A stretch of 64,000 nucleotides of DNA from positions 15,785 to 79,784 of IMG/VR virus record IMGVR_UViG_3300028603_000032; one strand, 5' to 3'. Made by a program: the position numbers and the translations under genes. Positions within the stretch are counted from its first letter, which is position 1, and each line of letters starts with the position of its first letter. Under the pieces are notes generated by a model. It made no database searches. It was not told the DNA's origin and saw nothing but the letters and a program-made list of their open reading frames with translations. The DNA is from a virus (lineage: Duplodnaviria; Caudoviricetes). Below are positions 205 to 62,145 of this stretch, piece by piece.

Positions 205-471
205 ATGGCTTACAAGTCTGACAAGCTGAACCTCCAGTCTCAGTCGATCGCGGGTGTCCGGCACTGGTCCTATACGGACACGGGCTCGGCACTTGCTGCC
301 GTGTCTGACGCCGGCTTCTTCTCCGATGGTCGCACCAAGGGGATGAAGGTGGGCGATGTCGTGTTCTTCACGAGCGCCGGCGCCACCCCCACGTCTGACA
401 CCTTCGTCGTCACTGACGTGCAGGCCGACGATACCGGCGGCCAGTACGCCTCTGTCGGCGATACGGGCTGA
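205..471 (+). CDS. Small virion protein (capsid decoration-like), 88 aa
   Basis: Strong RBS AAGGAGGA; follows the capsid gene; 3 DTG motifs. Confidence 0.65.
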   Translation: MAYKSDKLNLQSQSIAGVRHWSYTDTGSALAAVSDAGFFSDGRTKGMKVGDVVFFTSAGATPTSDTFVVTDVQADDTGGQYASVGDTG

Positions 472-489
472 TAGCCTTCACACGAACGG

Positions 490-520
490 GGCCGGCGCGA
501 TTGTCGCCGGCCTTTCTCTT
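490..520 (+). terminator. Rho-independent terminator after capsid operon genes
   Basis: GGCCGGCG-cgattgt-CGCCGGCC followed by TTTCTCTT. Confidence 0.6.
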
Positions 521-543
521 CATCCACAATCTGAGGGAAACTC

Positions 544-1008
544 ATGTCGACCGTTGCTGCGGCCGCAAAGCCGGCCCGTGTTGTCAAGTCAGAAGCCGCC
601 GCGCCCGCGAAGCCCGAGCAGATGCTCCGCCAGGTGCAGCCCCGCAAGTTCTCGCCCTCCACCCTGCAGTCCATGGGCCACGATTACGACTGGCTCGCCG
701 TGACGGTGCCGGGCGACTGGACGTTTGCCGACGTGATGAAGCCCATCGCATGGTCGAACGTCTGCACGATGGTCTCGCGCGATGCGCTCAATACCCGCCG
801 CGACAAGATCGGATCGTTGATCTATGCGCGCTCGCCGAAGTTCCTCGCCATGCTGGAGATCACGGGCGTCACGCTCGACCACCTCGGCAACCCGAACGGG
901 CTCAACGTCGAGTGTATCGGGCCGAGCGTGGACATCAAGACGGGCGAGGCACGCCCCTTGAACCGGAAGACCCGCAAGGCTTGGGCAGACGAGCCGGACA
1001 CCGAATAA
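544..1008 (+). CDS. Hypothetical phage protein, 154 aa
   Basis: RBS GAGGG, GC3-rich codon usage, position in structural operon. Confidence 0.65.
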   Translation: MSTVAAAAKPARVVKSEAAAPAKPEQMLRQVQPRKFSPSTLQSMGHDYDWLAVTVPGDWTFADVMKPIAWSNVCTMVSRDALNTRRDKIGSLIYARSPKFLAMLEITGVTLDHLGNPNGLNVECIGPSVDIKTGEARPLNRKTRKAWADEPDTE

Positions 1009-1019
1009 GGAGCGGAGCG

Positions 1020-1256
1020 ATGGGCGGTCTCTTGCGAGGCAGGAAAATGAGCGTTCCGGCAGAGCGTGAGCCGAGCCGGCCGCGTCCGGTTCGCTTGCCG
1101 ACAGAGACCGATCCGTCGGCCCTTGCCGCATCACAGAGGACACGTCAGGCGGCGGCGCAACGGAGAGGGCGGCTTTCCACTATCCTTTCCGATGGTGTGC
1201 AGGCCAATCCAGAGAAGGCCACAACCGGATCGTCCGGCGTGAAGCTGGGAGCATAG
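1020..1256 (+). CDS. Small virion-associated protein (MGG-start type), 78 aa
   Basis: RBS AAGGAG then ATG 1020 (MGGLLRGRK...RRGRLSTILSDG...KLGA); it is the 3' part of track ORF 501..1256. Confidence 0.55.
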   Translation: MGGLLRGRKMSVPAEREPSRPRPVRLPTETDPSALAASQRTRQAAAQRRGRLSTILSDGVQANPEKATTGSSGVKLGA

Positions 1257-1259
1257 GAC

Positions 1260-1901
1260 ATGGTTTCCAAGCTGGAGATCTTCAACGCGGCTCTCGACGA
1301 GCTAGGCCACGAGATCCTGAGCGATACCGGCGAAGGCAACAGGGCGGCGCAGGTTCTGGCGAGGCTCTATGACAAGGTGGTCGCGGACTGCCTTGCGGAA
1401 GGTTCGTGGAACTTTGCCATGGAGACCATCAAGGCGGAATCGGACACGGGCGTCGAGCCAGCGTTCGGCTTCAGGCAAGTGTTCGCCAAGCCGTCGGATT
1501 GGGTCAGGACGTTCGCAGTTTCAGAGGACGAGTATTTCACTTATCCGCTCCTGCACTACTACGACGATGCCAACTACTGGTCGGCGGACAATTCCCCGAT
1601 CTATATCCGGTACGTGAGCAACGATACCGGGCTTGGATTGGAGATGAGCCGCTGGCCGGCGGCGTTCCGGCGCTTTGTGGAACTGGAGCTCGCCGCCCGC
1701 GCCTGCATGCCAATAACGCAGAACGCATCCTTGAGAGAGGATGTGGAGGCGGCACGCGACAAGGCACGGAAGAACGCGAAGTCACACGATGCGATGAACG
1801 AGCCGCAGCCCCGCTTCCCGCCTCCATCACCGTGGACGCAGGCGAGGGCCGGCAGGATGGCGCGCGGTGATCGCGGCAGTCGTGGCAGATTGATCGGGTA
1901 G
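1260..1901 (+). CDS. Tail tubular protein A / adaptor (T7 gp11-like)
   Basis: N-terminal SKLEIFNAALDELG, WNFA, YQ-type P-D-W motif (FAKPSDWVR), size 213 aa, position before tubular B. Confidence 0.75.
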   Translation: MVSKLEIFNAALDELGHEILSDTGEGNRAAQVLARLYDKVVADCLAEGSWNFAMETIKAESDTGVEPAFGFRQVFAKPSDWVRTFAVSEDEYFTYPLLHYYDDANYWSADNSPIYIRYVSNDTGLGLEMSRWPAAFRRFVELELAARACMPITQNASLREDVEAARDKARKNAKSHDAMNEPQPRFPPPSPWTQARAGRMARGDRGSRGRLIG

Positions 1902-1906
1902 AAACC

Positions 1907-4900
1907 GTGGCAAGAACCAATGTCCCGCTACTTGCTCTGAATCGCGGCCTTGTATCCCCCAAGGCTCTCGCACGCGTTGATCTTGACCGCACCCGCCTTT
2001 CTGCCGAGGTGCAGACCAACTGGCTTTCGAACACCCAAGGCGCACTGTCCCTCCGCCCCGGTACGAAATACATGGGGTCGGTGGCTTGCGATACCGGAGC
2101 GGAGCTGATCGAATTCGTAGCGTCAACAGACGATGTGGCTCTGCTTGAACTCACCCATGATACCGGCTCCGGTCAAGGAAGAATGCGCGTGTGGCTGGGG
2201 GATGACGCGCATAACCTGCAACTCATGAAGCGGCCTCACGTCGATACACATGTGAGCCTGTCGGATACCGGATGGGAGGATGCTAGTCTGGGTGGCTCCA
2301 TCACCGTAAGTGGTTTTGATCTAATCCCCACGATGGTCGATCAGACAACTTCTGGGGTTAGCATGACGGCATCATCCACTGTGGATGATGAATCAAGCGC
2401 GTGGTCTGCTGGAGATGATGATGTCGACTCGTTGTGGGTATCAGATGATGACCCTCCCCAATGGCTGAAAGTCGATCTAGGTAGCGCACAACAGGTTTCG
2501 AGGTATTCGATAAGAGCTGTATCAATCCCCGAAGGCATCGGAGCAACGCCGTCTGCCTGGACCTTTCAGGGGAACCATTCGGATACGGGATCTGCAGGAA
2601 GTTGGACCACACTTGACACGGTGTCTGGTCAGTCGTCCTGGGCGGTAGGCCAGAAGCGCACGTTTAACATAGGTTCTCCACAGCAGTTCCGTTTCTACCG
2701 CTGGAATATAACGGCCAATGCTGGTGGGTATCCAGTGGTCGCCATTGCTGAGGTCGAGTTGATAGGTCAGGCAAGTGGCTCGTCTGACCAAGGCACGTTC
2801 AACCATGGTAATTTGATTTTGAATGCAGTGGCTCTTGGGTCGGTTGCTCGGGTCAGGAAACGCGTCATCGTTGACACTGGCGATCTCGGATCAGAACACC
2901 AATTGTCGATTGATGTCTCGCACGGCCCCGTCACATTCAGGATCGGCTCATCTGCCGGTGATGATGATTACGTGTCGGAAGCGATGCTCGCCACAGGGCA
3001 CCATTACCTCGCCTTCACGCCCACAAATGATTTCCATATTACCATTCAGAACGACAAAATTGTTAACCGTATCATTGATGGCATCAGTATAGCCGACAGC
3101 GGGGTAACGGCTATACCAACACCATGGTCCGCAGATGATCTCGATGACATCCGCTACGACCAGTCTGCCGATGTCGTCTATGTCGATTGCAGAGGTGTCA
3201 AGCCGCACAAGATCGAGCGCCGCGGAGTTGGCAGGTCATGGTCTGTCGTGGAGTATGACCCGAATGATGGTCCATTACTGACCGCACCATCGTCCTCTGC
3301 GAAGCTAAAACCCAACGGTTATTACGGCAATATCAAGATCCTGTCGGATGTCCCGTTCTTCCAGTCTGGTCATGTCGGAGCTCTCATCCGAATGTTCCAT
3401 TCCGGCCAAAGTGGAGTATGGCCGCTCGGAAACCTCGACACGACGACAGATCCGATCGAGGTAACGGGGATCGGCGACACCGGAACGGACAACGATATCG
3501 ACAACGAGCGCCGCATCATTTTCGATGTGTCCGGGAGCTGGTCGGGCGAGATCACCATCGAGAGATCATTCGATGGCCCCGAGTTCGGATTTCGACCGAT
3601 TGTTCCGAACCTCGGCACGCCGATCGATACGGGCACGTTCACGACCACAATAGACGACCCAGATGACAATATCAGTGCATGGTATCGCGCGAAGATTACT
3701 TCTTATACCTCGGGCGTTGCTGTGGTCCGCGTCAGCTACAAGGGCGGCGGTACGACGGGGATTGCTAGGATCACGGGCTACAATTCTAACCAGGAGGTCG
3801 ATGCCGAGGTTCTCTCCCGTTTCTCCGATACCGGCCCGACGGACAACTGGCAGGAAGGATGGTGGTCGGATCGCAGGGGTTATCCGACGGCAGTTTCCCT
3901 GCATGGCGGCAGACTTTGGCATGCCGGCGGGGCTACCGTGTTCGGCTCGGTTTCCGACGATTACGAAAGCTTCGACGAGTCGGTCGAAGGTGATGCCGGA
4001 CCTATCGTCAAGACGCTCGGCTCAGGTCCCGTCGACAGCGTGCATTACATCGTCTCCTTGCTTCGTCTGATCATCGGCACGGCAGGGGCGGAAATCGCCG
4101 TTCGCTCGTCCTCTCTTGATGAGCCACTGACGCCGACCAACTCCAACGCGATCGCCTTCTCGACGCAAGGCTCCGCCCCGCTCCGCGGCCTCAAGATGGA
4201 CACCCGGTGCATCATGGTGCAGCGATCCAGGCAACGCGTGTTCATGCTGGGAGCCGGAGTGCAGGGCGCATCGTTCGGGGACTACGAAGGGCTTGAGCTT
4301 ACGCTGCTAGTTCCTGATCTCCTGAACGCCAGGGTCAAGTCCGTCGCGATCCAGAGACAGCCTGATACCAGAATTCACTTCGCCCTTGAGGACGGCAAGG
4401 TTGCAATCCTCACCTACGAGCCGACCGAGGAGGTGATCTGCTGGTATCTGTGGGAGACGGACGGAACAGTCGAGCGCGTAGCAGTGCTTCCGGGTATCGA
4501 GGAGGACGCGGTATTCTATCTCATCCGCCGCGAGATCAACGGCCAGACGAAACGCTTCATTGAGAAGTGGGCCAAGGAATCGGAGTGTGTCGGGGATACT
4601 GGCCTGACTTGGCTCATGGACGCGGCCGTTTCGTACACCGACACCGGCCGCACCAACGTGATCTCAGGGCTGGATCACCTCGTCGGTGAAGAGGTCATCG
4701 TCTGGAGCGACGATACGGGCAGCATTCCCGGTGTCGACAGATCTCCTGATATCGACGGCTTGCAGCGCACCTATACTGTGGACACGGGCGGTAGCATTAC
4801 GCTCGACGCAGACGTGCATCATGCGGTCGTGGGACTGCCTTACAGTGCCACGTGGAAGAGCACCAAGCTGGCCTACGCGGCCCAAGCCGGGACCGCCCTC

Positions 4901-5185
4901 AATCAGGCGAAGCGCGTCCCGCAGATGGGCATGATACTCCACCAGACCCACGCGCGGGCTCTCCAGTACGGCAGCGATACGGGCGGGCCGCTCGACTCAT
5001 TGCCGAAGATGTATCGTGGCAAGGCGCTCGATCCGGATCATATCTTCCGCTCCTACGACGAGGTAGCCATCAGCTTTCCGAGCGGATGGGACACGGATGC
5101 TCGTGTCGTGATCAAGGCCAAGGCACCACGTCCCGCCACCATAATGGCCCTCGTGCCGAGTATTCAAACTAATGAAAGGGTGTGA
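1907..5185 (+). CDS. Tail tubular protein B / nozzle (T7 gp12, P22 gp10-like) with inserted F5/8 type C (discoidin) domain
   Basis: N-terminal LNRGLVSPKALARVDL, GYPTAVSLHGGRLWHAG beta-propeller motif, C-terminal PRPATIMAL; discoidin motif PQWLKVDLGSAQQVSRYSI...FRFYRWNIT. Confidence 0.8.
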   Translation: MARTNVPLLALNRGLVSPKALARVDLDRTRLSAEVQTNWLSNTQGALSLRPGTKYMGSVACDTGAELIEFVASTDDVALLELTHDTGSGQGRMRVWLGDDAHNLQLMKRPHVDTHVSLSDTGWEDASLGGSITVSGFDLIPTMVDQTTSGVSMTASSTVDDESSAWSAGDDDVDSLWVSDDDPPQWLKVDLGSAQQVSRYSIRAVSIPEGIGATPSAWTFQGNHSDTGSAGSWTTLDTVSGQSSWAVGQKRTFNIGSPQQFRFYRWNITANAGGYPVVAIAEVELIGQASGSSDQGTFNHGNLILNAVALGSVARVRKRVIVDTGDLGSEHQLSIDVSHGPVTFRIGSSAGDDDYVSEAMLATGHHYLAFTPTNDFHITIQNDKIVNRIIDGISIADSGVTAIPTPWSADDLDDIRYDQSADVVYVDCRGVKPHKIERRGVGRSWSVVEYDPNDGPLLTAPSSSAKLKPNGYYGNIKILSDVPFFQSGHVGALIRMFHSGQSGVWPLGNLDTTTDPIEVTGIGDTGTDNDIDNERRIIFDVSGSWSGEITIERSFDGPEFGFRPIVPNLGTPIDTGTFTTTIDDPDDNISAWYRAKITSYTSGVAVVRVSYKGGGTTGIARITGYNSNQEVDAEVLSRFSDTGPTDNWQEGWWSDRRGYPTAVSLHGGRLWHAGGATVFGSVSDDYESFDESVEGDAGPIVKTLGSGPVDSVHYIVSLLRLIIGTAGAEIAVRSSSLDEPLTPTNSNAIAFSTQGSAPLRGLKMDTRCIMVQRSRQRVFMLGAGVQGASFGDYEGLELTLLVPDLLNARVKSVAIQRQPDTRIHFALEDGKVAILTYEPTEEVICWYLWETDGTVERVAVLPGIEEDAVFYLIRREINGQTKRFIEKWAKESECVGDTGLTWLMDAAVSYTDTGRTNVISGLDHLVGEEVIVWSDDTGSIPGVDRSPDIDGLQRTYTVDTGGSITLDADVHHAVVGLPYSATWKSTKLAYAAQAGTALNQAKRVPQMGMILHQTHARALQYGSDTGGPLDSLPKMYRGKALDPDHIFRSYDEVAISFPSGWDTDARVVIKAKAPRPATIMALVPSIQTNERV

Positions 5186-6818: not shown

Positions 6819-9281
6819 ATGGCAAAGCTTCCCTCCCGCGAGTCTCTTGGCGGCATGCCCTCGGCGCGCTCCGGTCGCGCCATCGCCACCATAGACGCCA
6901 CTGCCCCTGCACGTGCGATGCAGCGGTTCGGCCGGACCATTGCCGGCGCCGGCCAGGAGATAGGCGATGCCATCCTGAAACTGTCCCAGGACCCGGCCGC
7001 CGAATACGAGACCGAACGCCGGTTCCAGGAGTTCAAGTTCCAGCAGCAGCAGCAGCTTGAAGAGCGCATGCGCTCGGTCCAGCCTGGGCAGGCCGACGGG
7101 TTCGCCGACACGTGGGCTGACGGGTACGGCGAGCAGGCGCGCGGATTTTTCGAAACGGTCCCGGACCGCCTCAAGCCCAAGTACGACAACAAGCTGTTCG
7201 GCGTGGAACGGGATTTCTACCGCAGCGCGGCGACGTTCTCCCGCAATGAGCAGAAGCGGTTTTCCCTCGCCAACCTCGACGACGATGTCAAACGCCTTGC
7301 GCTCACGCCTGATCTTGACACTGCGCGGGCTGACTTCGATAGTCTTATCAATCTCAATCCCTATCTCACCCCGATCGAAAAGGATGAGGTGCGCCGCAAG
7401 GGGCTCGATGTTCTCGAAGAACAGAATCTCGAATGGCGCATCAGGCGGGGCGATGATCTGGATGAAATTATCCGGGATCTGGAAACGGGCGGGATGCCGG
7501 ATCGGGATCCGGCTGGCCGTGTCAGCGAGAACGGTCTCGATTTCATCCGCAAACAGGAAGGCTTTACGCCTGTCGCGAAGTGGGACTTCAAGCAGCATTC
7601 GGTCGGCTACGGAACACGAGGAAAGCCCGGCGAGAGGATCACCGTCGAGGAAGCCGAGCGCCGGCTCCACGTGGAGGCAGGTGCCGTTTCCGACTGGATA
7701 GAGAAGAAGGTCAAGGTGCCTCTATCGCAGGAGCAGCACGACGCGTTGGTGTCGTTCGGCTTCAACCTTGGCACAGGCAATCTGGAGAAGCTGCTTCCCG
7801 ATCTGAACGAAGGCAACTTCGAGCGTGTCGCCGAGCGCATGCTGTCGTTCAACAAGGCAGGCGGCAGGACGCAGGATGGGTTGCGGCGTCGCCGTCAGGA
7901 AGAGGCAATGCTGTTCCTGAGCAGCAGTGAGCCCATGCAGGTCGCACAGGCCCCAACGGCGGGCGATGGAGCGCGCCTCCCCTCTCTCGGCAAGTATCCT
8001 AACCTTTCTCCACAACGCCGCTCGGCCCTGATCAACAAGGCCCGTGTTGCCCGCTCTGCCATTACCCAGCAGGAACTCAGGGACGACGAGGAGCGCATTC
8101 GCAGGACGGGTGAGCCTCTGGTCGGACCCGATGGCAAAACGTCACTCGACCGGGCGAAGACGTTCCTGACCAAGAACCAGGTGGACCAGGCGCGTATATC
8201 TTGGGACGAAGCGCGGATGGAGTACGAGGCGATATCGCCGTTGCGGTCGCTATCGGAGCTTGAGGACGAGGACGGAATGAGTGATGTGGACCGCCACATT
8301 GCGGCGCTGTCCCCGGATGAAAAGGCGCCAGAAGAATCGTATGCCTCACGGGCAAGGGTGCTCGACAAGACACTGGCAGCCTGGAAGAAGATCCAGGAGG
8401 AGCGGCGCAAAGACCCGGCCAAGGCCGTCAACGACCAGCCTGAGGTTCGCGATGCCTTCGAGGTGGTGCAGGCCCGTGTCCCGGAAGCCACGATCGTCCA
8501 GCATGATGACGGTGAGCTTGATGTCGAGGTCGCGGAAGGCCAGCCCGCCGTCAGCGCGTTGAAGGCGCAGGAGATGGTGATGGAGGCTCGCCTTCAGGCT
8601 CAGGCGCGGCTCGGCATCCCGGAGGTCTATCGTTCTCCTATCACACGCAAGCAGGCGAAAAAGCTGCTCGACATGCCTGATCCTGCTCTGCTGAACGACA
8701 AGGAGTTCTATGACAAGCTCCGGGCGGCGGCTGATGCTTCGGAGGAAACCTACGGTCCCCGCTTCGGCCGGCAAGCCTTCGAGTCGGCAGTTCGCTTCAA
8801 GCTGCGTGAGAAGGAGCACAAGGATACGGCTGCCGGCGTGATCCGACAAGTCGTTTGGGGTGAGCCTGTCACCCAACGCGACATCAACCGTCTCCGTATG
8901 ATGAATGAAATCGATTTATCCGACGCAATGTTCTCTGACCCGTTTGCATTCACTGGACCGCGTTCAACACGCGGTGGAGTGCGGCAGATCGAGGATCTGG
9001 ACGCGATAGGGCGAGGTCCAGAAAACCAATTCCTTCCAGCGTTCGCGATGGAGGAGACGGAACGGCCGTTCATCTCGCCTGAGTTCGCGCGGGATACGAT
9101 GCCTGCAATTCAGGAGTATCAGGCGAGACAGGCAGCAAAACGTCCGACCCCAGCGCAGATCGAATGGGTCAGACAGGACCCGAAAAGCCGCCAGCCTATT
9201 TTCGATATGGAGTTCGGTCGTGGGGCGTGGGCGCGCTTTGCGAACGAGCCTGCCGATACCAGCCGAGAACCTTCTCGATAA
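6819..9281 (+). CDS. Internal virion protein with GH24 (phage lysozyme) domain
   Basis: LDFIRKQEGF...SVGYGT...QHDALVSFGFNLG...FNKAGG...GLRRRRQEEAMLF lysozyme signature at about aa 240-370. Confidence 0.8.
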   Translation: MAKLPSRESLGGMPSARSGRAIATIDATAPARAMQRFGRTIAGAGQEIGDAILKLSQDPAAEYETERRFQEFKFQQQQQLEERMRSVQPGQADGFADTWADGYGEQARGFFETVPDRLKPKYDNKLFGVERDFYRSAATFSRNEQKRFSLANLDDDVKRLALTPDLDTARADFDSLINLNPYLTPIEKDEVRRKGLDVLEEQNLEWRIRRGDDLDEIIRDLETGGMPDRDPAGRVSENGLDFIRKQEGFTPVAKWDFKQHSVGYGTRGKPGERITVEEAERRLHVEAGAVSDWIEKKVKVPLSQEQHDALVSFGFNLGTGNLEKLLPDLNEGNFERVAERMLSFNKAGGRTQDGLRRRRQEEAMLFLSSSEPMQVAQAPTAGDGARLPSLGKYPNLSPQRRSALINKARVARSAITQQELRDDEERIRRTGEPLVGPDGKTSLDRAKTFLTKNQVDQARISWDEARMEYEAISPLRSLSELEDEDGMSDVDRHIAALSPDEKAPEESYASRARVLDKTLAAWKKIQEERRKDPAKAVNDQPEVRDAFEVVQARVPEATIVQHDDGELDVEVAEGQPAVSALKAQEMVMEARLQAQARLGIPEVYRSPITRKQAKKLLDMPDPALLNDKEFYDKLRAAADASEETYGPRFGRQAFESAVRFKLREKEHKDTAAGVIRQVVWGEPVTQRDINRLRMMNEIDLSDAMFSDPFAFTGPRSTRGGVRQIEDLDAIGRGPENQFLPAFAMEETERPFISPEFARDTMPAIQEYQARQAAKRPTPAQIEWVRQDPKSRQPIFDMEFGRGAWARFANEPADTSREPSR

Positions 9282-12400: not shown

Positions 12401-15400
12401 AAATCATTGGCCGCCATCTTGGGTTGCCGGTCGATAGCTCCATCGTGCAGACAGTGCGCGCCCAGCACACGGGCGCCGACGCATTCGCCAGACTGGCACG
12501 TCAGCCTGTGTTCTCCGGTCCTGTCGTCGCGGGCCAGGATTACGTCATCGTCGATGATACCGTCACTATGGGCGGTACATTGGCAAATCTCCGAGGCTAT
12601 ATTGAAAGCCAAGGCGGTCGTGTTATATTAGCGTCCACACTGACAGGTGGACCGCAGCAGAATATCGTCCCATCGGCAGCTCAGCTCGATGCGGTCCGTA
12701 AGAAGCACCCAGATCTTGACGAATGGTGGCAAAATGAATTCGGCTTCCCGCTCGAAACGCTCACGGCCAGCGAGCTTGGTCACCTCAGAAAAGCCGTATC
12801 ACTTGACGCCATCAGAGATCGAATCTCTGCGGCAAGAGGGTCCGAAGATAGACAAGGCGGTGGACGAGTATTACCGCAAGAAGGAGGCGGCGAGGTAGCG
12901 CCGTCTACCAGCACTGGTGACACAGAACCGCCTTCGGGCGGTTTTTCTTTGGCCTCACTGACCGGCCTACCGCGTCTTCCAACGGAACCATCGGCGCCAA
13001 TCGATGCGCTTATCATCACCGCGATAGAGCGCAAGATCGATGCCATGCTCCCGGCTGATGTCGCCACGCGGATCAAGGACAGAATTACCCACCCATCCGG
13101 TGCTGTCCTTAACGCCCAATTCCTCATCGGCAAGCGAATGGTCGAGTTGGGCCTCGTGAATAGCCCGCTCAAGATCTTTCATCTCGGCAAACATGAGGTG
13201 ATCCATGCTCTGCGGATGTCCGGGCTTTTTACGCAGGATGAATGGCAACGGCTCGTCTCCCACGCCAAGAAGATCAACATCGATGAACAGATAACGGCGA
13301 AAGATGCCAACGGCAAGCAGGTACCCGCCATTCCTGGCTACCGGAACCTGTATCGCACGTCCTTTTCTGGAATAGGGCTGAGAGGGAAAGAACTCAACGA
13401 AGTCATCGAGGAGCTTATCGACCAAGAGCGTGTTGCCAAGATGGCGGAGCAATGGGTCGCTCGCGAGGCCAAATTCGGGCGCGCCATAGACCAGATCCTT
13501 GATCGCATCAGTCGATTCATAGAAGCAGCCGCCCGCGCTCTGAACAATCTCGGCATCAGGTCTTTAGATGACTACGTGGAACTGGCGAATGAGCGCGACG
13601 TGCAGCGCATCGCCGAAAGGGTGCTGTCTGGTGAAGTGGGCGGCCGTGCGCGCCCGGATGATCTCGGCCTGCCGATCGGCGTGCAGCAACTGATTGGAGC
13701 CGTGCCTCGTAGCGATGTTGGTCAGATCGTTCCTGCTGCCTCACAGGAAGGCAGAGCAGTGCTGGATGCACTGCTTGCAATCCGCGCGTTTCATGGCAGC
13801 CCGCATGACTTCGACCGCTTTTCAATGGAGAAGATCGGCACGGGTGAGGGTGCTCAGGCGTTCGGCCACGGACTTTACTTTGCCGAGGCAGAGAATGTTG
13901 CGAAAGACTACCAGAGTAAACTTGCGCCTCCTCAAGTCAATACAGGCTATCGCAACATCGATACAGAGCTTTCGAATGTTCATGGGGGTGACTGGGAAGC
14001 ATTCAAGGCGGCCCACCCGAACCCGAGCCCAGGATTGAAAGAGGCAATCGAGGACATCGAGTCGCGCGGCGCGACCGGATCTCAGCAGAAGGGCCGCTTC
14101 TACGAAGTCCGCATCAATGCAGAGCCCGAAGACTTCCTCGATTGGGACGTGCCGATCGCAGAGCAGAGCGAGAAAGTCAGAGCAGCGCTGAGATCCATCG
14201 GCCATCCCGATAACATAAAAACCGAGGAGGATCTGGCGCAACTCTGGCAGCGCAATGTGCGGCTGGCAAACGGTAGAATTCTCGCGTGGTACTTCAGCCC
14301 GCCCCTATCGTCCCCACGTTTTGGATCCGAGGCGCGAGTCTACGAGTCCGGCGGGAAGTGGACAGCGAGCCTTGACATGCCCGGCGGCGGCCTCCGCGAC
14401 TTTGCGACGGAGGCAGAGGCCAAACAGTGGGCCGATGGTATATTACGCCGTAACTTCGGGAGCGGGGATCTCGGCTCTGACGTTGCGCGCCAGCTCACCG
14501 CCCGCGTTTGGCTGTGGAACAGAAAGATCACGGACCCGCGAAAGATCAGCCGGGCGCTGCGGAAAGCCGGGATCAAGGGGATACGCTATCTTGACGGGTT
14601 CTCGCGGCACAAGGGTGAGGGCCATCACAACTATGTCGTCTTCGACGACTCCCTCATCGAGATCACCGCCAAGGACGGCAAGCCTGTATCCAGTCAGGAA
14701 AAGCAGGACTTCGTTGCTGCCTCTCTCGCCAGCGTCCCTTCTCAGCCTCAACCCCGTTCCTTCAACATCGAAGGTTTCAGTGGAACCGTCTCGACTTCAG
14801 AGGATGAGAATGGAAACAGGGTAAGGACGTATCGGGTCAGTGAGGAAGATGTTGGTTCATTCGAGCGTCGAGAGCCCGCTGACGCTGGTTCGGTCAACGT
14901 TCCGTCTTCCGTGGGATTCGCTGTCCTCAAGGAACAGGACGACGGCACATGGTCCGCGTCCATGGTCCGCATCGAGCCGGGCCATCGCAGGCAGGGTGTT
15001 CCCTCACGCCTTCTCCGTGCCATCGAGGAAGACCTTGGCCAGCGTCTCGCTCCACAAGGCTGGCTCACCGCAGAGCAGTACGCAGAGCTTGCCGAAAGCA
15101 ACCCGGATGCCGTCCGGTTCCATCAGCCTGCCGGTCCCGCATTCGACGATATGTGGGTCTCTCCAAAGCAGATGGAGTTCGGCGCGGAGATCCTGAAGGA
15201 GTTCGCCTCACAAGCACCAGATGCAGCATCGGCAAGGGAAGCACTGGATCAGGCACGCCAGCTTGAAGCCATGCGGGCCTTAGTGCCGGCAGAGGCGTTC
15301 GAGCAGGAGCAGGCCATGTTCGCGCTCCGTGGCCTGCCCCATCCCATCAACCTCGGAACTCCATCACGGTCAGGAACCGAAGCCCCAGAGAAAAGCCTGT

Positions 15401-18400
15401 CCGATCTCGTCTCCGATCTGACGGATGCACTAGGTCTCACAGTACGGCACGGCCGACTCAGCCCCGGCCTGAAGGCAGCCGCCGGGCGGCTTGGCATGAG
15501 CGTTGCCGGCCAGTTCTCCCGCGCCACGGGCGTCACCCGCATCGCAATTCCGAATGATCTCGCCACCTTGGCCCACGAAGGCGGCCATGCGCTGGAAACC
15601 CGCAACTCGACACGCGATGACGTGCGCCAGCTTCAGGACGATCACATCGAGGAGTTGATCACCGCACCGTCCCGCAATTTCTCCCCGCCTCAGATGCCGG
15701 CCAGCGGTTTCTCAGGGGTAGAGCTCGACGACGATACCCAGCGCGTCCTGATCGATGCGGTTCAGGCCGACGTGAACCTGCGCGCACAGACATTGCAGGC
15801 CGGCCAGGCTAAGTCCGGCGTCCGCTTCATGCGCGGCAAGATTGACGACGCGGCCTATAAGCAGGCTCAGCGTGAGGCGGGAATGCTCCGGGCCGTGCTG
15901 ATCCGCCGTCTCGGGCAGCGTGTGGCAGATGCCGTTCTCGATGACGTGAAGAAAGCGGCCCCCCGTGACCTGCAGCAGTACATCGCGCAACGGTTCTCAG
16001 CCACGGGAACACCGAAGCCGCGCCCTGCTCCCCCGCAAGCCTCGCGCACGGAGCTGTCCGAAGGCTGGGCCGAGTTCTTCCGGCAGTATGTCACCAATCC
16101 CCGTGAGGCCCGCATTCAGGCTCCTAGGCTCTACGAAGCCTTTGAGGACATGCTGGACGGGGCAGAGCCGGATATGCTGGAGCAGTTGCAAGAGATCCAG
16201 AAGGGCTTCACCGAACTTAAGAACGCCTCTCCTGCCGGTGCGGTGATGAGCCGTGTCCAGTCCTCCGTCAAGCCATCGATGTTCGCGCAGTTCCGCAAGG
16301 ACCTGGCAGAGAAGGGACCACGGGCGACGATCTCCGACAAGCTCTACGGCTTCTATCATGCGGCCGTCGACGGTAGGCATCCCATGAAGCGCGCCGTCAA
16401 GTTCCTGATGGAGCTCGGTGCCGACAATCTCGGTGTGCAGCTCGGCGACAACGAGCGCATGGTGCTCAAGGCGGCCGACGATCCTTACAAGGTCTGGCGT
16501 CTTGCCGAGCACTCCAAGGTCTGGGCCACGGCCACACTGCAGAACGGTGTGCGTCTCAAGGGCGAGGCGGAGCCGTCCGGGCCATCCTTTCACGAGGCTT
16601 TGTCGGAAGCCTTCGGCGGCACCGCCAAGGGCCAGTGGAATGACGAGAAAGCGCAGACGTTCGGTTCCTATCTGGTCGCCCGGCGCATGCTTGCGGAATG
16701 GAAGCGTTACGAGAACGGGGAACTGGAGAACCCGCCGGACAGCCTGATCGAAAAGCGCGTCTGGCAGAAGGCGCGTCAGGACATCGAGAAGGCGCATCCC
16801 GAGTTCGCCAAGGCCGCCCAACTCCTCTACGGCTTCAACAAGCGCCACCTGCAGAACAAGTTCCTCAACGGCTTCCTTACCGAGGATCTGTTCCTTGAGC
16901 TGAACGCGCGCGAGGACTACGTGCCTCTCAACCGCATGATGGACGATGACGGCCCATCAGCCTTGACGAAGCCGCGCGGCCAGAACAAGCGCAAGCTGAT
17001 CTATCGGTTCAAGGGCTCGACGCGGGATTTCATCAACCCGCTCGAAAGCATCGCGCAGGACGTTTATGCAACGCAGGCACGGTTCGCGCTGAACGACGTG
17101 ATCGGCGCCATGGACCGGCTGTCCCGCGCAGTTGGGCCGGGTGGCGGCGTGATTGCCGAGCGTATCCCGCCCAACGACATGCGCGGCACGCGGGTGGACA
17201 TCCGTGAGGCCATGCGCCAGGCGGCGCGTGATCTCGACCCGAACGACGCGCAAGGTCTGATCGAGATGATCGACGACCTGTTCGATCAGGATGCGGCAGC
17301 GACGATCTTCCGTGCGGTTCCAACCGAAGAGAAGGGCGAGCCAATCGTCTACCTGTGGGAGGAGGGCAAGCGGGTTCCGATCCGTCTCGGAGATAATCGC
17401 ATCGCGCGGGACATCTTCGAGACCATGGTGGCGCTGGGGCGTGATAACTCGGACATCGTTACTGATATCTTCTCCTATGGCGCTCAGGCGTTCCGCTTCG
17501 GCGTCACGAAGGCAACATCGTATATCGCGGTCAACTTCATTCGGGATCAGGTTGCCACCTGGATTCTATCGCGCGACTACGTGCCGCTTGTGTCTGGTGC
17601 GAAGGGTTTATGGGGCATAAACAGGGGTGGCACGATAGGTGCTGTGACAGGAGCGGCGCTCGGCACCGGGGTCGGCGTAGCGACCGGCGGCATCGGGTTC
17701 GCCGCCATTCCCATTGGCACCATCTTCGGAATGAGTCTGGGCTCCCGCCTCATCGGAAAACATGCGAAGGATCTTGCACGGTACAACGCCTTCGCTGGGC
17801 TAGCCGGTGTCGAGTCCGGGCTGATCGATTCGCCTTCCACTGACAGGGATATACTGGCGCTCAGGCGAACTGGCTTTCTAGGTGTTCCGTCCAGAGGACG
17901 CTTCATCGGCACTTGGCAGCGCATTCTGCGTGCGGCTGAGGTGACTGAGGCGGCAAGCAGGCTAGGGCATTTCAAGGCAGCCTACGATCGCGCTCTCAAG
18001 GACGGGTTCACGCCGGAGGAGGCGGCAATCGAAGCTGCCTATGCCGCCCACGACGTTCTTGATTTTAGCCGGAAGGGCGCGAAGATGGGTCAAGTTGCGC
18101 GCATCATGGCGTTCACCAACTCTGCGCTTCAAGGTCTCGATGCCGCGTTCAGAACAGCAACAGGCGAGCGGAATATATATCGAAACTACCGCGAAGCTTT
18201 GACGCCATTCATCAAGTCGGCCAATGGCTCCCCGTTGTCAATCGCAGAGAAGGAGGCTCTGCCCAATTCAGTCCGCATGTGGATCAAGATGGTCGCTATC
18301 GGCCTTATGGGAGTGGCGCTGTTTGCACTTGATGACGATGACGAGACTAATGATTACATGCGGGCAACGCATTGGTTCTTCAATCTGTTCGGGATACGGG

Positions 18401-22718: not shown

Positions 22719-24137
22719 TTAGCGTGTAACTCGACGCTCGATAAACTTTCTCGTTGGTGTGGAATCTGCTTCGCGTTGCATGCGTGCGTACTCGTCGTCT
22801 TCGGCATGGCAGACCTCCCACTCGATGTGGTGGAACACGTAATGACAGTTGCCGCAGCCAGGATCGAGACCTTCCAGAACCTTGACGTGGCCATGCTCGT
22901 CGGGCGGGCAGGTGATGACTGGCGCGCGGAAACTGCCTTCGGGGTACTCCCCCTTGCAGTACGGGCATTGGCGCAGCTTGCCAGACTCCATCAACAGCAC
23001 CTTGGCGCGGATGGTGCCGAACGAGTAGCCGCGGCCGGCACGGTTGGCGATCTTGGTCAGCCCGTTGACGGCCTCGGTATAGGCATTCGTCACCGGGTAA
23101 TCGAAGAATGCGAATATCTCGCTGCGCCAGTTCTCGACCATGTTGGCGACAGGCCGGAACTCGGTCTCGATGCGTTCGTCGATCTTCCTTGCCCAAGCGT
23201 CGAAGCGCTTCTCAGCCACGGCACGGCTCTTGGCGGCGAAGATGTCGTAAAACCGCTCTTTGGCGTGCCAAGCAGCATCGAGCAGTGGGTTATTGCCGAT
23301 TAGCCCGTCGAGCATCATGCGGCGCATCGGAGAGAGGCGGTGGCGGCTGGTTTGCAGCAGGAGCTTACCTTGCCTAGGGTTACGCCGAGGGGTCTTGCTG
23401 GCCTTCCTGGCGCGATTGCGCACCCTATCCAACGCGAAGTTCGCCTTGCTCAGGACGTGCCACTTGTCGATCACGATCTGGGCACCGGGTAGCAAGGCGC
23501 GGGCGGCATTCTTGTATGGCCCCCACATATCGATCGCGACGATCTTAATGCTCTCGCGCTTGGGCAGATGCAGCAGCCAGCGCTCAACGCGGCGCCGGTC
23601 CATGCTGTCGATGATGTCAAGCGGGCGGCGGGCGCCAATGTCAACGAAGATGGTGCGCTTGCGGCCCAGAAGCGTCAACTCGTCGATACCGAGCATCAAT
23701 GGCGCCTCGATCTTGCGCTCGGCAATACGCCGTTCCATGGCCTCGTTGCAGATGTTGCGGATCGTCTTCTCGTTGCAGCCGATGTGACGGGAGAGTGCCG
23801 CATAGGTCTGCGGGACGCCCTGTTCTTCAATGTACCGCACGCACCGCTTGGTCATCTGGCGCCGCGAATCCATGTCAGGCAGCGGCTGCATGGACGTGGC
23901 GTTGCACTCTCGACATCTGTAGCGCTGCACCTCGGCGATAATGACCACCTGCTTGCCGAATGCTGGGGCGTCCCGGTACTCGATGGTCTTGGTGCCGTGT
24001 CGGTACAGGCGCCCGACGCAGCCGCACTTGGGGCAAGTGTCAAGCAATCTTTGACAGTTCGCTTTCGCCTCGCGAACATCGCCGACGATGCGCATTTCGC
24101 GCACGTCCCATCCGTCCAGCCAGAGACCGTTGGTCAT
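22719..24137 (-). CDS. ISL3-family transposase
   Basis: zf CPKCG...CRECN; GIDE, AIDM, IDKWHV, TNAYTEAVN DDE motifs. Confidence 0.92.
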   Translation of the reverse strand: MTNGLWLDGWDVREMRIVGDVREAKANCQRLLDTCPKCGCVGRLYRHGTKTIEYRDAPAFGKQVVIIAEVQRYRCRECNATSMQPLPDMDSRRQMTKRCVRYIEEQGVPQTYAALSRHIGCNEKTIRNICNEAMERRIAERKIEAPLMLGIDELTLLGRKRTIFVDIGARRPLDIIDSMDRRRVERWLLHLPKRESIKIVAIDMWGPYKNAARALLPGAQIVIDKWHVLSKANFALDRVRNRARKASKTPRRNPRQGKLLLQTSRHRLSPMRRMMLDGLIGNNPLLDAAWHAKERFYDIFAAKSRAVAEKRFDAWARKIDERIETEFRPVANMVENWRSEIFAFFDYPVTNAYTEAVNGLTKIANRAGRGYSFGTIRAKVLLMESGKLRQCPYCKGEYPEGSFRAPVITCPPDEHGHVKVLEGLDPGCGNCHYVFHHIEWEVCHAEDDEYARMQREADSTPTRKFIERRVTR

Positions 24138-32706: not shown

Positions 32707-33945
32707 TTACCCGACCTTCTTGCTCGGTAGCCTGCTAACATTCGGTGGAAGCGTTTTCGTGACCTGGACGTTGGCGCGCATCTGGGTCGTTTCGCTCTGC
32801 AACACGTGGGCGTAGCGGAGTGTCGATTTCAGGTCGGAGTGATCCATCGCATGCATGAGGCGTTTCAGGTTGCCATCGGCCCTCAGTGCGCGTGACCCGA
32901 ACGTGTGGCGGAAGTCGTGCAGGCGGAAGTCCTTGATGCCCGCCTCGATGATCGCCCGCTTCACGTTGTCGTAGAGCATCTGCTTCGTGATCGGGATGCG
33001 CTTGCCCTTGTCGCTGGGACGCTGCGAGCGGGCCGTGAACAGGTACGGGCAGTCAGGCGCTTCATCCCATGCCGCGTTGACGATCTCCAGTTCGCGCTCC
33101 GTCAGCGTCACCCAATGCCACTCCTCGCGCCGCTTCTTGAGCTTGCGCATGTAGACCCGGCCGCCAACGCGGTCGATCCTCTCCTTCGGCAGGTGGAGCC
33201 AGAGCGACTGGCGCTTGCCCGAGATGATGTACATCTCGGAGATAAGATGATAGTCCTCGGGCAGCTTCTGCCAGAACCGCAGCTCCTCCTCGATCGACAG
33301 CTCCCGGATGCGCTCGGCCGGCTCTTCCAACTTGATGCCGTCGCGGCCGCCCCACTGGAACTGCTCCAGATCCACCGGGATGCCCCAATGCTTGCGGGCT
33401 CGCCGCATGACGCGGCGCAATGGCTCTACAACTTGCCTGTTGACGGTTGCGGGTGATGGAAGCCTTCCAGTCGGGATCGGCAACACCTCGCCGTTGATCT
33501 TGCGCCACTGGACCGTCTCGGTCGAGGCGCGCCGGCTCACGGCCTTAGCTACGTCATCGGGTGAGATGGATACGATCGGCGTCTCTTCGCCGTAGTAGGT
33601 CAGGAGCTCCATCATGCAGTGCTCCTGCTGGCGTCGGGCGTGGCGCTTGGCGGCGATCTCGGGGGAATCTACGGTATCGGCTACTTTCGGCGGAACCTTT
33701 GGCGCAACCTCGTCGATATACCGCTGGGTGGCTTGCGCCAGCGTCATCAGCGTTCCTAGCTTGCCGAGCGCGGCTAGCTCGCGAAGCCTTGCCTCAACGC
33801 GGCGAGCTGCCTTTTCCGTTGTCTGGCCCGTGCTACCAAAGAACCGCTCTGATTTTGACTTGCCCGCAGGCTTGAGACGGAAGTCGAAGTGGTAGAACGC
33901 CGTCTTTGGTTTACCGTCTTTCCCCTTGGGTTGATAGACTGACAT
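32707..33945 (-). CDS. int: Tyrosine recombinase / phage integrase
   Basis: SGKR(R), FRLHDFRHTFGS (HxxR), MDHSDLKSTLRY (H, Y); N-terminal arm-binding domain. Confidence 0.92.
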   Translation of the reverse strand: MSVYQPKGKDGKPKTAFYHFDFRLKPAGKSKSERFFGSTGQTTEKAARRVEARLRELAALGKLGTLMTLAQATQRYIDEVAPKVPPKVADTVDSPEIAAKRHARRQQEHCMMELLTYYGEETPIVSISPDDVAKAVSRRASTETVQWRKINGEVLPIPTGRLPSPATVNRQVVEPLRRVMRRARKHWGIPVDLEQFQWGGRDGIKLEEPAERIRELSIEEELRFWQKLPEDYHLISEMYIISGKRQSLWLHLPKERIDRVGGRVYMRKLKKRREEWHWVTLTERELEIVNAAWDEAPDCPYLFTARSQRPSDKGKRIPITKQMLYDNVKRAIIEAGIKDFRLHDFRHTFGSRALRADGNLKRLMHAMDHSDLKSTLRYAHVLQSETTQMRANVQVTKTLPPNVSRLPSKKVG

Positions 33946-43983: not shown

Positions 43984-44685
43984 TCAGATTTGGTAGGCGG
44001 TGTACACCCCTACCACCAGCCCCTCCATGATGACCTTCTCAAGATCGTCTTCGGAAGGGTATGCCACGACCGGCCTGGGTGACTGCCGGCTGATGGTGAT
44101 GCAGTGCAGCTCGGTGCGTCCGTCCTGGATCACCACCCGGCGGATCGTGTGCTCTTTCTGTCCGCCGCGGTCCCGGATGACGTGAACCTCGTCCCCTTGG
44201 AGAGGGCTCTGCCTTATCTTGAAGTAAGGTACGCAAATTGCGAATCGGTTAGGATCTTCCTCGTAAGCTACCCAGTATTGGTCCAATCCGACTAATTTCG
44301 GGCTTGGGTCTGCTGGGACGCGTCTTGCTGCGTCCATTGAATGCCCCCCTTCCCGCCACACGCCTGGCGCGATAATAGCTCGTCCAAATATCAGCTTCTG
44401 TACGTCGCCTCCCCTCGGAGGCTCTAACGGCCTCACTGTTGACATATTACCGGCACCGTTTTGGTCTGGTCTACTCACAATTTCAGGGGGAGGATCGACG
44501 CCGAGATACCTGGCGATGATCGGGACCTCGTGCGCAGAGAAGCGCCGTCTGCCGGACTTGAGGTCGGTGATCGCGCTCGGCGGGACTTTCAGTAACCTAG
44601 CTAACTCCTTCTGACTCTTGCCCGAACGGCGTGGCAACGCACTCAGTGCGTCTCTGAACCACTTTGCCAGCGCCTCCTGTTCCAT
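43984..44685 (-). CDS. CI-like repressor (HTH plus degenerate S24-like C-terminal domain)
   Basis: SQKELARLLKVPPSAITDLKSGRRR HTH; divergent from cro-like gene. Confidence 0.8.
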   Translation of the reverse strand: MEQEALAKWFRDALSALPRRSGKSQKELARLLKVPPSAITDLKSGRRRFSAHEVPIIARYLGVDPPPEIVSRPDQNGAGNMSTVRPLEPPRGGDVQKLIFGRAIIAPGVWREGGHSMDAARRVPADPSPKLVGLDQYWVAYEEDPNRFAICVPYFKIRQSPLQGDEVHVIRDRGGQKEHTIRRVVIQDGRTELHCITISRQSPRPVVAYPSEDDLEKVIMEGLVVGVYTAYQI

Positions 44686-61165: not shown

Positions 61166-61831
61166 ATGGCTCGTGCAGTACGGAAAGGGCGACCGAGGAA
61201 GGCCGACATAAAGGCCGCTGCCGATCGAGCAGAGCGCAGAGCAAAGGGCGAGAAGCCAGCCCCGCCGAAAGATCATGTTCTCGATCCGCCCGAGACAGCC
61301 AAGCGTGATGAGAAGACAGGCCGGTTCCTTCCGGGCAACCGTTTCTGGATGGCGCGATCGAGCGCAGGGCCTAATCCGAAGTTTGCAAAGGCAGATGACC
61401 TCTGGAGCGCCTGCGTCGAGTATTTCGATTGGGTGCAGGCCAACCCGCTCTATGCGGATCACATCGTCACGTTCCAAGGGATGGCAACCCACGAGCCTGT
61501 TGCCAAGATGAGGGCGATGACCATTGCAGGTCTTTGCCTGTTCCTGGACATCAGCCAAGAAACATGGCGGCTCTGGAAAAGAGATCGTTCCGATTTGCTT
61601 GCAGTCATTACGCGAGCGGAGACAGTAATATACTCGCAGAAGTTTGCCGGAGCTGCAGCAGATCTTCTGAATGCCAATATCATCGCACGAGATCTTGGCC
61701 TCGCAGACAAGAATGAACTGACCGGCAAGGACGGCGAGCCTCTGATGCCTGAGTCCTCCAGTCCACGAGATATCGCCCGCGCTATTTTTGACATCCTGCG
61801 CACGGCGCAGATCAACGGAGACCAGAAATGA
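61166..61831 (+). CDS. terS: Terminase small subunit (P22 gp3-like)
   Basis: [10 protein letters not shown]; [18 protein letters not shown]; [12 protein letters not shown]; [23 protein letters not shown]. Confidence 0.9.
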
Positions 61832-62145
61832 TCAGCCGTCACGTCTTCCACGTCGATACGGACACGGGAACATGGGTCGGGGTATCGGCGCCGTTCATGG
61901 GGTCTCTGAGGCAGGTTCGCTGGAATCCAGAAGGAGCCGACACGGGCGGCTCGCTGGAGATGACGATGCTTCTGAATGAGACCGACACGGGAGACGGCTG
62001 GACGTTTCTTCAGAAGGCAGGACTTGGAACCGCGTTCGTGGACACCGGAGTAAACGTCATCGGCGCTGGTGAGAAGTTCAAGGTTTCAGTGAGGCCAGGT
62101 GCGGCCTCACTATCAGGCAAGCTCTATGTGTGGGTGGGGGAGTAG
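61828..62145 (+). CDS. Small beta-rich putative virion protein with 4 DTG motifs
   Basis: ATGA coupling to terS; beta-strand pattern. Confidence 0.6.

Follow-up and report, generated by a model that had tools for sequence, protein, structure and literature searches.

Known systems and the present locus

Glycosylation of virions by phage-encoded enzymes has been described in mycobacteriophages: in Che8, Corndog and Myrna, glycosyltransferases encoded by the phage modify capsid and tail-tube subunits (Freeman et al. 2023, Cell Host Microbe, via PMC12363180; cited in PMC12582341). A three-residue O-glycosylation sequon, D-(S/T)-(A/I/L/V/M/T), is known in the Bacteroidota (PMC8550257). Here we describe the tripeptide Asp-Thr-Gly (D-T-G, or DTG) in an uncultured podophage, IMG/VR record IMGVR_UViG_3300028603_000032, studied in a window of 64,000 nucleotides that spans bases 15,785–79,784 of its 79,784-bp contig. 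DTG is about 20-fold more frequent than expected in six virion proteins and about 10-fold less frequent than expected in the other sampled late and virion proteins of the clade. In the outward-facing tail and fibre proteins it is a candidate O-glycosylation sequon with Thr as the acceptor, a reading to which, judging from the sequences, we lean slightly.

As in the mycobacteriophages, the phage here carries soluble glycosyltransferases of its own beside the structural genes, and their predicted cytoplasmic substrates are likewise proteins of its own virion. The putative targets are different, being capsid and tail tube there and nozzle, adaptor, fibre and small proteins here, where the capsid lacks DTG. 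A podophage has no tail tube. In the glycosylating mycobacteriophages methyltransferases are found near the glycosyltransferases, and to our knowledge neither a short conserved sequon nor proteome-wide avoidance has been described for them. The hosts of the mycobacteriophages are actinobacteria, whereas the host here is probably a Gram-negative alphaproteobacterium.

DTG resembles the Bacteroidota sequon in having three residues with Asp right before the acceptor, and at the most conserved sites here this Asp is near-invariant. It differs in the +1 position, occupied here by a near-invariant Gly that is outside the allowed A/I/L/V/M/T set, and in the strong preference for Thr over Ser. Moreover, O-glycosylation in the Bacteroidota takes place outside the cytoplasm and uses lipid-linked glycans, whereas the cassette of putative sugar enzymes found in this phage contains no clear membrane-spanning protein. 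Virion proteins assemble in the cytoplasm.

As a working analogy for the fibre with its 35 sites we use the heptosyltransferases AAH and TibC, responsible for the cytoplasmic hyper-glycosylation of the repeat adhesins AIDA-I and TibA at short strand–loop–strand elements. There, many Ser and Thr residues of a repetitive beta-rich surface protein are modified, and the modification improves adhesion and stability. Unlike the phage case, these are bacterial enzymes of a different fold and family that use no fixed tripeptide.

DTG in six proteins of the phage

Translation of the open reading frames (ORFs) yields 3, 3, 13 and 4 DTG for the small virion protein dec88, the tail adaptor, the tail nozzle and orf105 (88, 213, 1,092 and 105 amino acids (aa), respectively; Table 1), which are exactly the counts given in an earlier note on this DNA. 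Thus, four window proteins with a total length of 1,498 aa contain 23 copies, whereas about 1.0 would be expected from residue composition. None of the 20,000 shuffled versions of any of the four proteins reached its observed count, in line with an excess over background, for which the note had proposed a check, and the Poisson tails range from 5e-4 for dec88 to 2e-12 for the nozzle. The same note had seen no DTG in two ejected proteins of 820 and approximately 3,380 aa; on translation (820 and 3,391 aa) both indeed have 0.

In a genome-wide scan, six target proteins, that is, the four above, the repeat fibre and a 101-aa ORF adjoining it outside the window (3 DTG), account for 61 DTG in 2,567 aa, whereas the remaining approximately 22,000 aa of the genome contain 3. 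The terminase, portal, scaffold-like and capsid proteins of this genome have none. The sites in the fibre are spaced mostly by 14–15 or 21–22 residues, and the last DTG of dec88 forms the C-terminus of the protein.

The names given to the tail proteins in the earlier note stand. The adaptor matches phrog_394 at 4e-41; the nozzle matches phrog_376 at 6e-135, has tblastn matches to 'tail tubular protein B', and its structural model retrieves by Foldseek the solved nozzles of phages Carin-1, LME-1, T7 gp12 and others, as well as CBM32 modules. The gene order portal–scaffold–capsid–adaptor–nozzle–internal proteins is that of T7-like tails. The label 'decoration protein' for dec88 comes from the gene position after the capsid, its PHROG match being to a family of unknown function (phrog_18004), so that dec88 should be regarded as a putative decoration protein.

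The nozzle carries an inserted CBM32/F5/8 type C module at window positions 2318–2776 (residues ∼138–290; Foldseek TM-score, that is, template modelling score (TM), ∼0.8 to CBM32). The matches of the sister-clade nozzles introduced below begin near residue 300 of this protein, and basal DTG-rich nozzles, at 904–976 aa, are about as short as the sister-clade ones. If the virion is glycosylated, the predicted CBM32-like module could bind the phage's own or host glycans.

All 19 GAYACNGG words in window positions 205–5185 are in frame, with varied codons, and the 413 DTG sites of 26 related nozzle genes include all 32 synonymous 9-mers with codon usage near the background. Hence the selection is on the peptide and not on DNA, as the earlier note had argued from the frame and the variable codons. 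We reject composition, DNA-level effects and assembly errors as scarcely credible sources of the DTG excess: apart from the frame and the 32 synonymous versions, permuted tripeptides sit at expectation, and the trait is kept in relatives spanning GC 50% to 70%.

Conservation in the clade and single origin

Related loci were collected from IMG/VR by alignment-based scans (a single-protein scan of IMG/VR gave no match). The nozzle homologues with 54–76% identity, which come from metagenomic contigs of up to ∼100 kb, several of them near 80 kb, contain 10–20 DTG in all 120 cases, and DTG is the commonest tripeptide in every one of them. In about 14 columns of the nozzle alignment DTG is present in at least 85% of the occupied sequences, compared to the mean column identity of 39%. 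Asp and Gly are near-invariant at most of these columns, while at the Thr position DSG is the commonest substitute in eight of them, with mixed replacements in the rest. A minority of the nozzle sites turn over.

The flanks of the nozzle sites are also non-random, with L, I or F at −2 and Ser enriched at −1. Downstream, tallies of the two positions following Gly put Thr first at both, though it is enriched only at the nearer one, where Trp is enriched as well. Two known motifs were considered and rejected. In the Asp-box, or BNR repeat, S-x-D-x-G-x-T-W, the register of Thr and Trp does not agree with that observed here, nor does the combination of L, I or F at −2 with Ser at −1. The aspartic-protease motif D-T/S-G does not account for 3–35 copies in such unrelated folds as the nozzle, adaptor and fibre, and no match to a protease family was found in these proteins.

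The distribution among genes is the same throughout 20–30 related loci: 2–4 DTG in the dec88 family, 2–5 in the adaptors, 11–22 in the nozzles and 4–5 in the orf105 family, and none in the terminase, portal, scaffold, capsid (22 members), two small internal proteins and all cassette enzymes. The 154-aa gene between dec88 and the adaptor has 22 orthologues, and all of them lack DTG. The positions are conserved as well. Each of the 21 dec88-family members has 2–4 DTG, two columns are universal, and 18 members end in D-T-x. Two DTG columns of the adaptor are present in 30 of 30 members and the third one in 24 of 30, and six orf105 orthologues with identity as low as 33–36% hold their 4–5 DTG in the same columns.

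At larger distances the trait disappears. While the IMG/VR loci whose nozzle is at least 52% identical have DTG-rich nozzle, adaptor and dec88, those with nozzle identity of 48% or less, many from records of ∼43–57 kb, several complete, have essentially no DTG. The sister-clade nozzles (n=47, 35–48% identity) contain 0–2 DTG, and none of the 13 positions is fixed in them, each being gapped or occupied by diverse residues (YTT, GT-, SG-, DFD and others); the sister-clade adaptors (n=44) contain none. Therefore the fold does not require DTG, and the gaps indicate that DTG often arrived together with small loop insertions. The possibility, raised in the earlier note, that the sites are structural turns conserved in ordinary homologues is contradicted by these 47 nozzles.

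Among 150 nozzle representatives (50% clustering) the DTG counts are bimodal, 0–2 or at least 7, and in the FastTree phylogeny the DTG-rich nozzles group as a single clade (support 100) within a wider set of DTG-poor relatives. Thus, according to the tree, the DTG-rich trait has one origin.

Avoidance of DTG outside the target families

The target families of the DTG-rich clade contain 610 DTG against 30.3 expected. In the non-target proteins of the same clade (79,642 aa, 317 distinct sequences) only 2 were observed against 19.8 expected, whereas the non-targets of the sister clade show 20 against 16.8. Outside the targets of five complete genomes, 11 were observed and 27.6 expected. This avoidance of DTG in non-target proteins is a new finding of the present analysis. 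It depends on the order of the residues: the permuted tripeptides DGT, TDG, GTD, GDT and TGD occur in the non-targets of the DTG-rich clade 14, 12, 20, 16 and 19 times, respectively, each to be compared with 19.8, and they serve as an internal control with the same relatedness between sequences as the DTG count. It also depends on Thr, as DSG is found 18 times with 19.6 expected. On the target side, DTA is not enriched (10 observed, 28.8 expected).

One capsid column (sister-clade loci L031–L082 compared with genome positions 15123–15971) possibly exemplifies a tag erased from a non-target protein. There, 11 sister-clade sequences have DTG and the others TTG, TVG or NTG, while in the DTG-rich clade all 23 sequences have NLG, TLG or ALG.

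Enrichment in the targets together with an order- and Thr-specific purge elsewhere is what is expected of a motif read by a factor, and we consider it likely that some factor reads the DTG tag. The factor might simply bind it, if a phage chaperone, cement protein or lectin-like module docks non-covalently on DTG turns during the assembly of the tail and fibres. The adaptor, nozzle and fibre, to which the motif is limited in this case, contact one another, the regular spacing in the fibre would suit a docking site, and avoidance in other proteins would prevent mis-binding. Still, we found no candidate reader protein, a three-residue epitope yields little binding energy, the small proteins encoded beside the capsid and terS genes are tagged too, and the sugar-enzyme cassette would be left unexplained; this makes docking an improbable explanation.

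Placement on protein structures

In the AlphaFold2 (AF2) monomer model of the nozzle, 11 of 13 DTG are in non-regular structure, mostly directly before or after a beta-strand. This placement fits the flank preference for Ser at −1 behind a hydrophobic −2 residue, with Thr or Trp immediately following Gly. The earlier note had proposed that DTG maps to exposed turns. The loops are confirmed at this level, while the exposure is approximate, as the model is a monomer of medium confidence (predicted local distance difference test (pLDDT) 65.6).

Such a location at strand–loop junctions, with the hydrophobic −2 and Ser at −1, would also be natural for a lineage-specific structural turn of the Asx/ST type, or for a Ca/Mg site, which would lend stability to beta-rich extracellular proteins and have no enzyme reader. 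Binding of Ca was among the proposals of the earlier note, the change from Thr to Ser is conservative, and the spacing in the fibre is periodic. We nevertheless give this explanation little weight. Homologues from the sister clade fold without DTG; in 18 of the 21 dec88-family members D-T-x is the end of the protein and no turn can follow it; the flanks are unlike those of the Asp-box; and a turn gives no reason for ten-fold order- and Thr-specific depletion in the capsid, portal, terminase and enzymes. The order-specific purge fits a motif that is read, and a fold-stabilising turn alone would not produce it.

The putative sugar-enzyme cassette

The earlier note had proposed looking for glycosyltransferases in the missing terL–portal–capsid segment of the genome. 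Two paralogues of GT-A glycosyltransferase type do occur between the fibre gene and terL, in a cassette that also encodes methyltransferases and a kinase-like protein (Table 1). Across the clade the cassette has 2–4 such paralogues. Residues D94 and D96 of the DxD motif are invariant in 12 paralogues and orthologues. The AF2 model (pLDDT 82, predicted TM-score (pTM) 0.85) has as its best Foldseek matches BoGT6a, glycogenin, ABO GTB and LARGE1, with probability 1.00, E-values from 2e-7 to 3e-6 and TM of ∼0.55. Hence the paralogues are predicted to have a retaining GT6/GT8-like GT-A fold, similar in this respect and in the invariant DxD to the CAZy GT6/GT8 enzymes. Direct glycosylation of proteins in the cytosol is known from glycogenin and related GT-A enzymes. 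Unlike the curated GT6/GT8 members, the phage sequences match no Pfam family with the E-value limit raised to 5, and no sequence from PDB. A scan of the cassette proteins for membrane-spanning segments gave no clear case: over 19 residues, the Kyte–Doolittle mean is nowhere higher than 1.62.

A GT-A homologue is present in all five DTG-rich records, in 1–4 copies, and in none of the six DTG-poor records that are at least 90% complete. The basal DTG-rich contigs L190 (17 kb) and L218 (5 kb) end short of the cassette region.

The composition of the cassette varies. The 253-aa FkbM-type methyltransferase-like gene lies in this genome on the opposite strand after orf105, while its orthologues in relatives are inside the cassette; the orthologue from relative G004 matches PF05050 Methyltransf_21 at 2e-11. 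The G004 cassette further has a short-chain dehydrogenase/reductase (SDR) and a flavin adenine dinucleotide (FAD) oxidoreductase in addition to the FkbM methyltransferase, and such variable sugar-tailoring content is typical of glycan loci. The 88-aa cassette ORF starts like the GT-A paralogues and by its sequence looks like a truncated GT-A copy, whereas for the neighbouring Methyltransf_24 gene BLAST of the related loci gave no orthologue; taken together, this suggests a recent rearrangement of the cassette. For the 222-aa ORF there is a weak Atlas match (score 0.83) to a cluster in which 16% of the members are MptE-like/Maf, which we treat as a lead only. A 144-aa ORF also belongs to the cassette. 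The Cys-rich 216-aa ORF is present in seven relatives, at varying places among the cassette genes. Its consensus suggests a homing endonuclease or a DNA-binding protein and not a sugar enzyme.

Two other roles of the cassette were considered. DNA hypermodification was ruled out, since none of the five genomes has a thymidylate-synthase-like gene, while the positive controls worked; this argues against glycosylated hydroxymethyl-pyrimidine DNA. Seroconversion of the Gtr type was ruled out as well, because there are no membrane proteins and the cassette is in the late operon.

Another reading keeps a covalent modification and changes its chemistry: DTG could be the target of phosphorylation, methylation or ADP-ribosylation at Thr or Asp by a phage or host enzyme, with the GT-A serving some other purpose. 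Enrichment and avoidance show only that the motif is read by something, the glycosyltransferase assignment is at the fold level, and a P-loop kinase-like protein as well as two or three S-adenosylmethionine (SAM) methyltransferases are products of the same cassette. However, the P-loop protein, by weak AAA_18/AAA_33 matches, resembles small-molecule or nucleotide kinases rather than protein kinases; the FkbM and Methyltransf_24/25 types are typical for O-methylation of small molecules and sugars; and no other cassette genes are as well conserved, or duplicated as often, as the GT-A paralogues. We therefore regard a modification other than glycosylation as unlikely.

DTG as a candidate glycosylation sequon

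O-glycosylation of Thr in DTG draws on the cassette, the depletion in non-targets and the Ser-for-Thr substitutes; these parts of the modification proposal made in the earlier note have gained ground, while the exposure of the sites is approximate and the association with the cassette reflects one event. In its fuller form, for which we see about equal chances of being right or wrong, a phage-encoded cytoplasmic O-glycosyltransferase would read a minimal Thr-specific D-T-G, and the proteome would follow a 'tag-and-avoid' code, written in the tail and fibre proteins and erased elsewhere; it would then be one case of a more general, so far undescribed practice in which each phage clade has a tripeptide tag of its own. 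In this scheme, one GT-A acting in the cytoplasm late in infection would use a nucleotide sugar as donor and place the sugar on the Thr hydroxyl of exposed D-T-G turns; its paralogues would lengthen the glycan, which the methyltransferases, kinase and oxidoreductases would then tailor or cap. If off-target modification is harmful, DTG would be lost from the capsid, portal, terminase, scaffold and cassette enzymes. The benefit of such a glycan coat would be protection of the tail and fibres, or adhesion.

Several observations weigh against glycosylation. DTG richness and the cassette, as reconstructed from sequences, each arose once and on the same branch; therefore their co-occurrence amounts to one evolutionary event, and a further ∼28 kb of genes likewise set the DTG-rich clade apart. 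Homologues of the glycosyltransferases in other phages (27–35% identity) have 10-kb flanks with no excess of DTG or any other tripeptide. The GT-A assignment itself comes from one PHROG match, the DxD motif and a predicted fold, and the placement of DTG from the modelled nozzle monomer of pLDDT 65.6, whereas the assembled tail has a nozzle hexamer and an adaptor dodecamer. A structural reason might underlie the regular DTG spacing in the fibre. As the sequences within a family are related, the depletion probabilities overstate independence. Finally, DSG, though tolerated at target sites, shows no avoidance in other proteins, which would demand a reader specific for Thr.

The receptor-binding proteins of the clade are not all tagged. 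There are 0 DTG in the product of the large fibre or spike gene of relative G004 (L175:9170–10990, minus strand, 606 aa, with a faint endosialidase-like match). A neighbouring 284-aa protein has 4 DTG, and a 108-aa protein has 5.

Phage identity, host and other features

A 127-bp overlap joins the contig ends, as seen by comparing the termini, and hence the contig is circular or terminally redundant. The window region is moderately GC-rich (59%). Given an integrase and a CI-like repressor, this uncultured podophage of ∼80 kb is temperate. The ISL3-family transposase gene, located inside the phage genome directly after a lysis-like gene, looks like an insertion sequence carried by this temperate phage. 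The 3,391-aa ejected protein has the 'polyvalent protein' domains LPD38, ART-PolyVal, GNAT and PRTase-like; the domain search gave no RNA-polymerase match, and therefore this protein is not like the N4-type virion RNA polymerase.

In tblastn searches against isolated phages, the nearest nozzle and portal sequences are ∼24–31% identical and belong mainly to Pelagibacter podophages, while the fibre has no match. The GTDB representative genomes contain 30 relatives, mostly in Alphaproteobacteria (Hyphomicrobiales and others), all of them DTG-poor. Relatives from the sister clade are found in assemblies of Mesorhizobium, Methylobacterium, Xanthobacter, Bauldia and others, several within large bacterial contigs. 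The DTG-rich clade was not found among the GTDB species representatives, and no cultured host was found. Judging by the sister-clade prophages, the host is probably a Gram-negative alphaproteobacterium.

Table 1. Features of the phage genome. Plain coordinates are positions in the window; coordinates marked L001 are genome positions.
Feature	Location	Strand	Remarks
dec88, small virion protein (88 aa) whose gene immediately follows that of the capsid	205–471	+	3 DTG at DNA 277, 430, 460
154-aa gene between dec88 and adaptor	544–1008	+	0 DTG; GC at third codon positions (GC3) 0.87
Tail adaptor, 213 aa, T7 gp11-like, tail tubular protein A	1260–1901	+	3 DTG at DNA 1323, 1443, 1623
Tail nozzle, 1,092 aa, T7 gp12-like, with inserted CBM32/F5-8 type C-like domain	1907–5185	+	13 DTG at DNA 2090, 2159, 2264, 2582, 2873, 3476, 3626, 3827, 4595, 4640, 4712, 4781, 4976
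Internal/ejected protein, 820 aa, lysozyme-like domain	6819–9281	+	0 DTG, negative control
Polyvalent ejected protein, 3,391 aa	9406–19581	+	0 DTG, negative control
ISL3-family transposase	22719–24137	−	DDE_Tnp_ISL3 8e-49, also zinc ribbon and helix-turn-helix (HTH)
Tyrosine integrase, CI-like HTH repressor	32707–33945 and 43984–44685	− (both)	Indicate a temperate phage
orf105, 105 aa, after terS	61828–62145	+	4 DTG at DNA 61861, 61939, 61984, 62041
FkbM-type methyltransferase-like gene, 253 aa	62220–62981	−	Alignment to orthologues
Repeat fibre, 968 aa	63739–64000 (N-terminus), on across the circular junction to genome 2772 (L001:37–2772)	+	35 DTG
Cassette between fibre gene and terL	L001:3355–9139	co-oriented	Late operon; genes abut or overlap
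GT-A paralogues, two	L001:4428–5171 and 7333–8052		phrog_1962 'glycosyltransferase' at 8e-10 and 5e-9
Cys-rich cassette ORF, 216 aa	L001:5950–6600	+	No Pfam match; outside the window
Cassette ORF, 88 aa	L001:6597–6863	+	Start like GT-A paralogues (MSLTVCTYFWFD...); outside the window
Class-I SAM methyltransferases, two, in cassette			Methyltransf_25 and Methyltransf_24 matches
P-loop kinase-like cassette protein			Weak AAA_18/AAA_33 matches
Cassette ORF, 222 aa			No Pfam or PDB match

Significance

If DTG is indeed a glycosylation sequon, it would be the first sequon defined for phage virion glycosylation and the first case of such glycosylation outside the actinophages, and it would join the few cases in which O-glycosylation in the cytoplasm is directed by a minimal sequon of three residues. 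The glycosyltransferase together with its three-residue tag could then be moved between bacteria as a tool to glycosylate proteins at chosen sites, and tripeptide statistics could reveal modified virion proteins straight from metagenomes. Glycan coats on tails would bear on the host range, the stability of phages and the immune recognition of therapeutic phages. More generally, a viral proteome would have been shaped by a modification system in both directions, by enrichment and by avoidance, comparable to the way restriction sites shape genomes.

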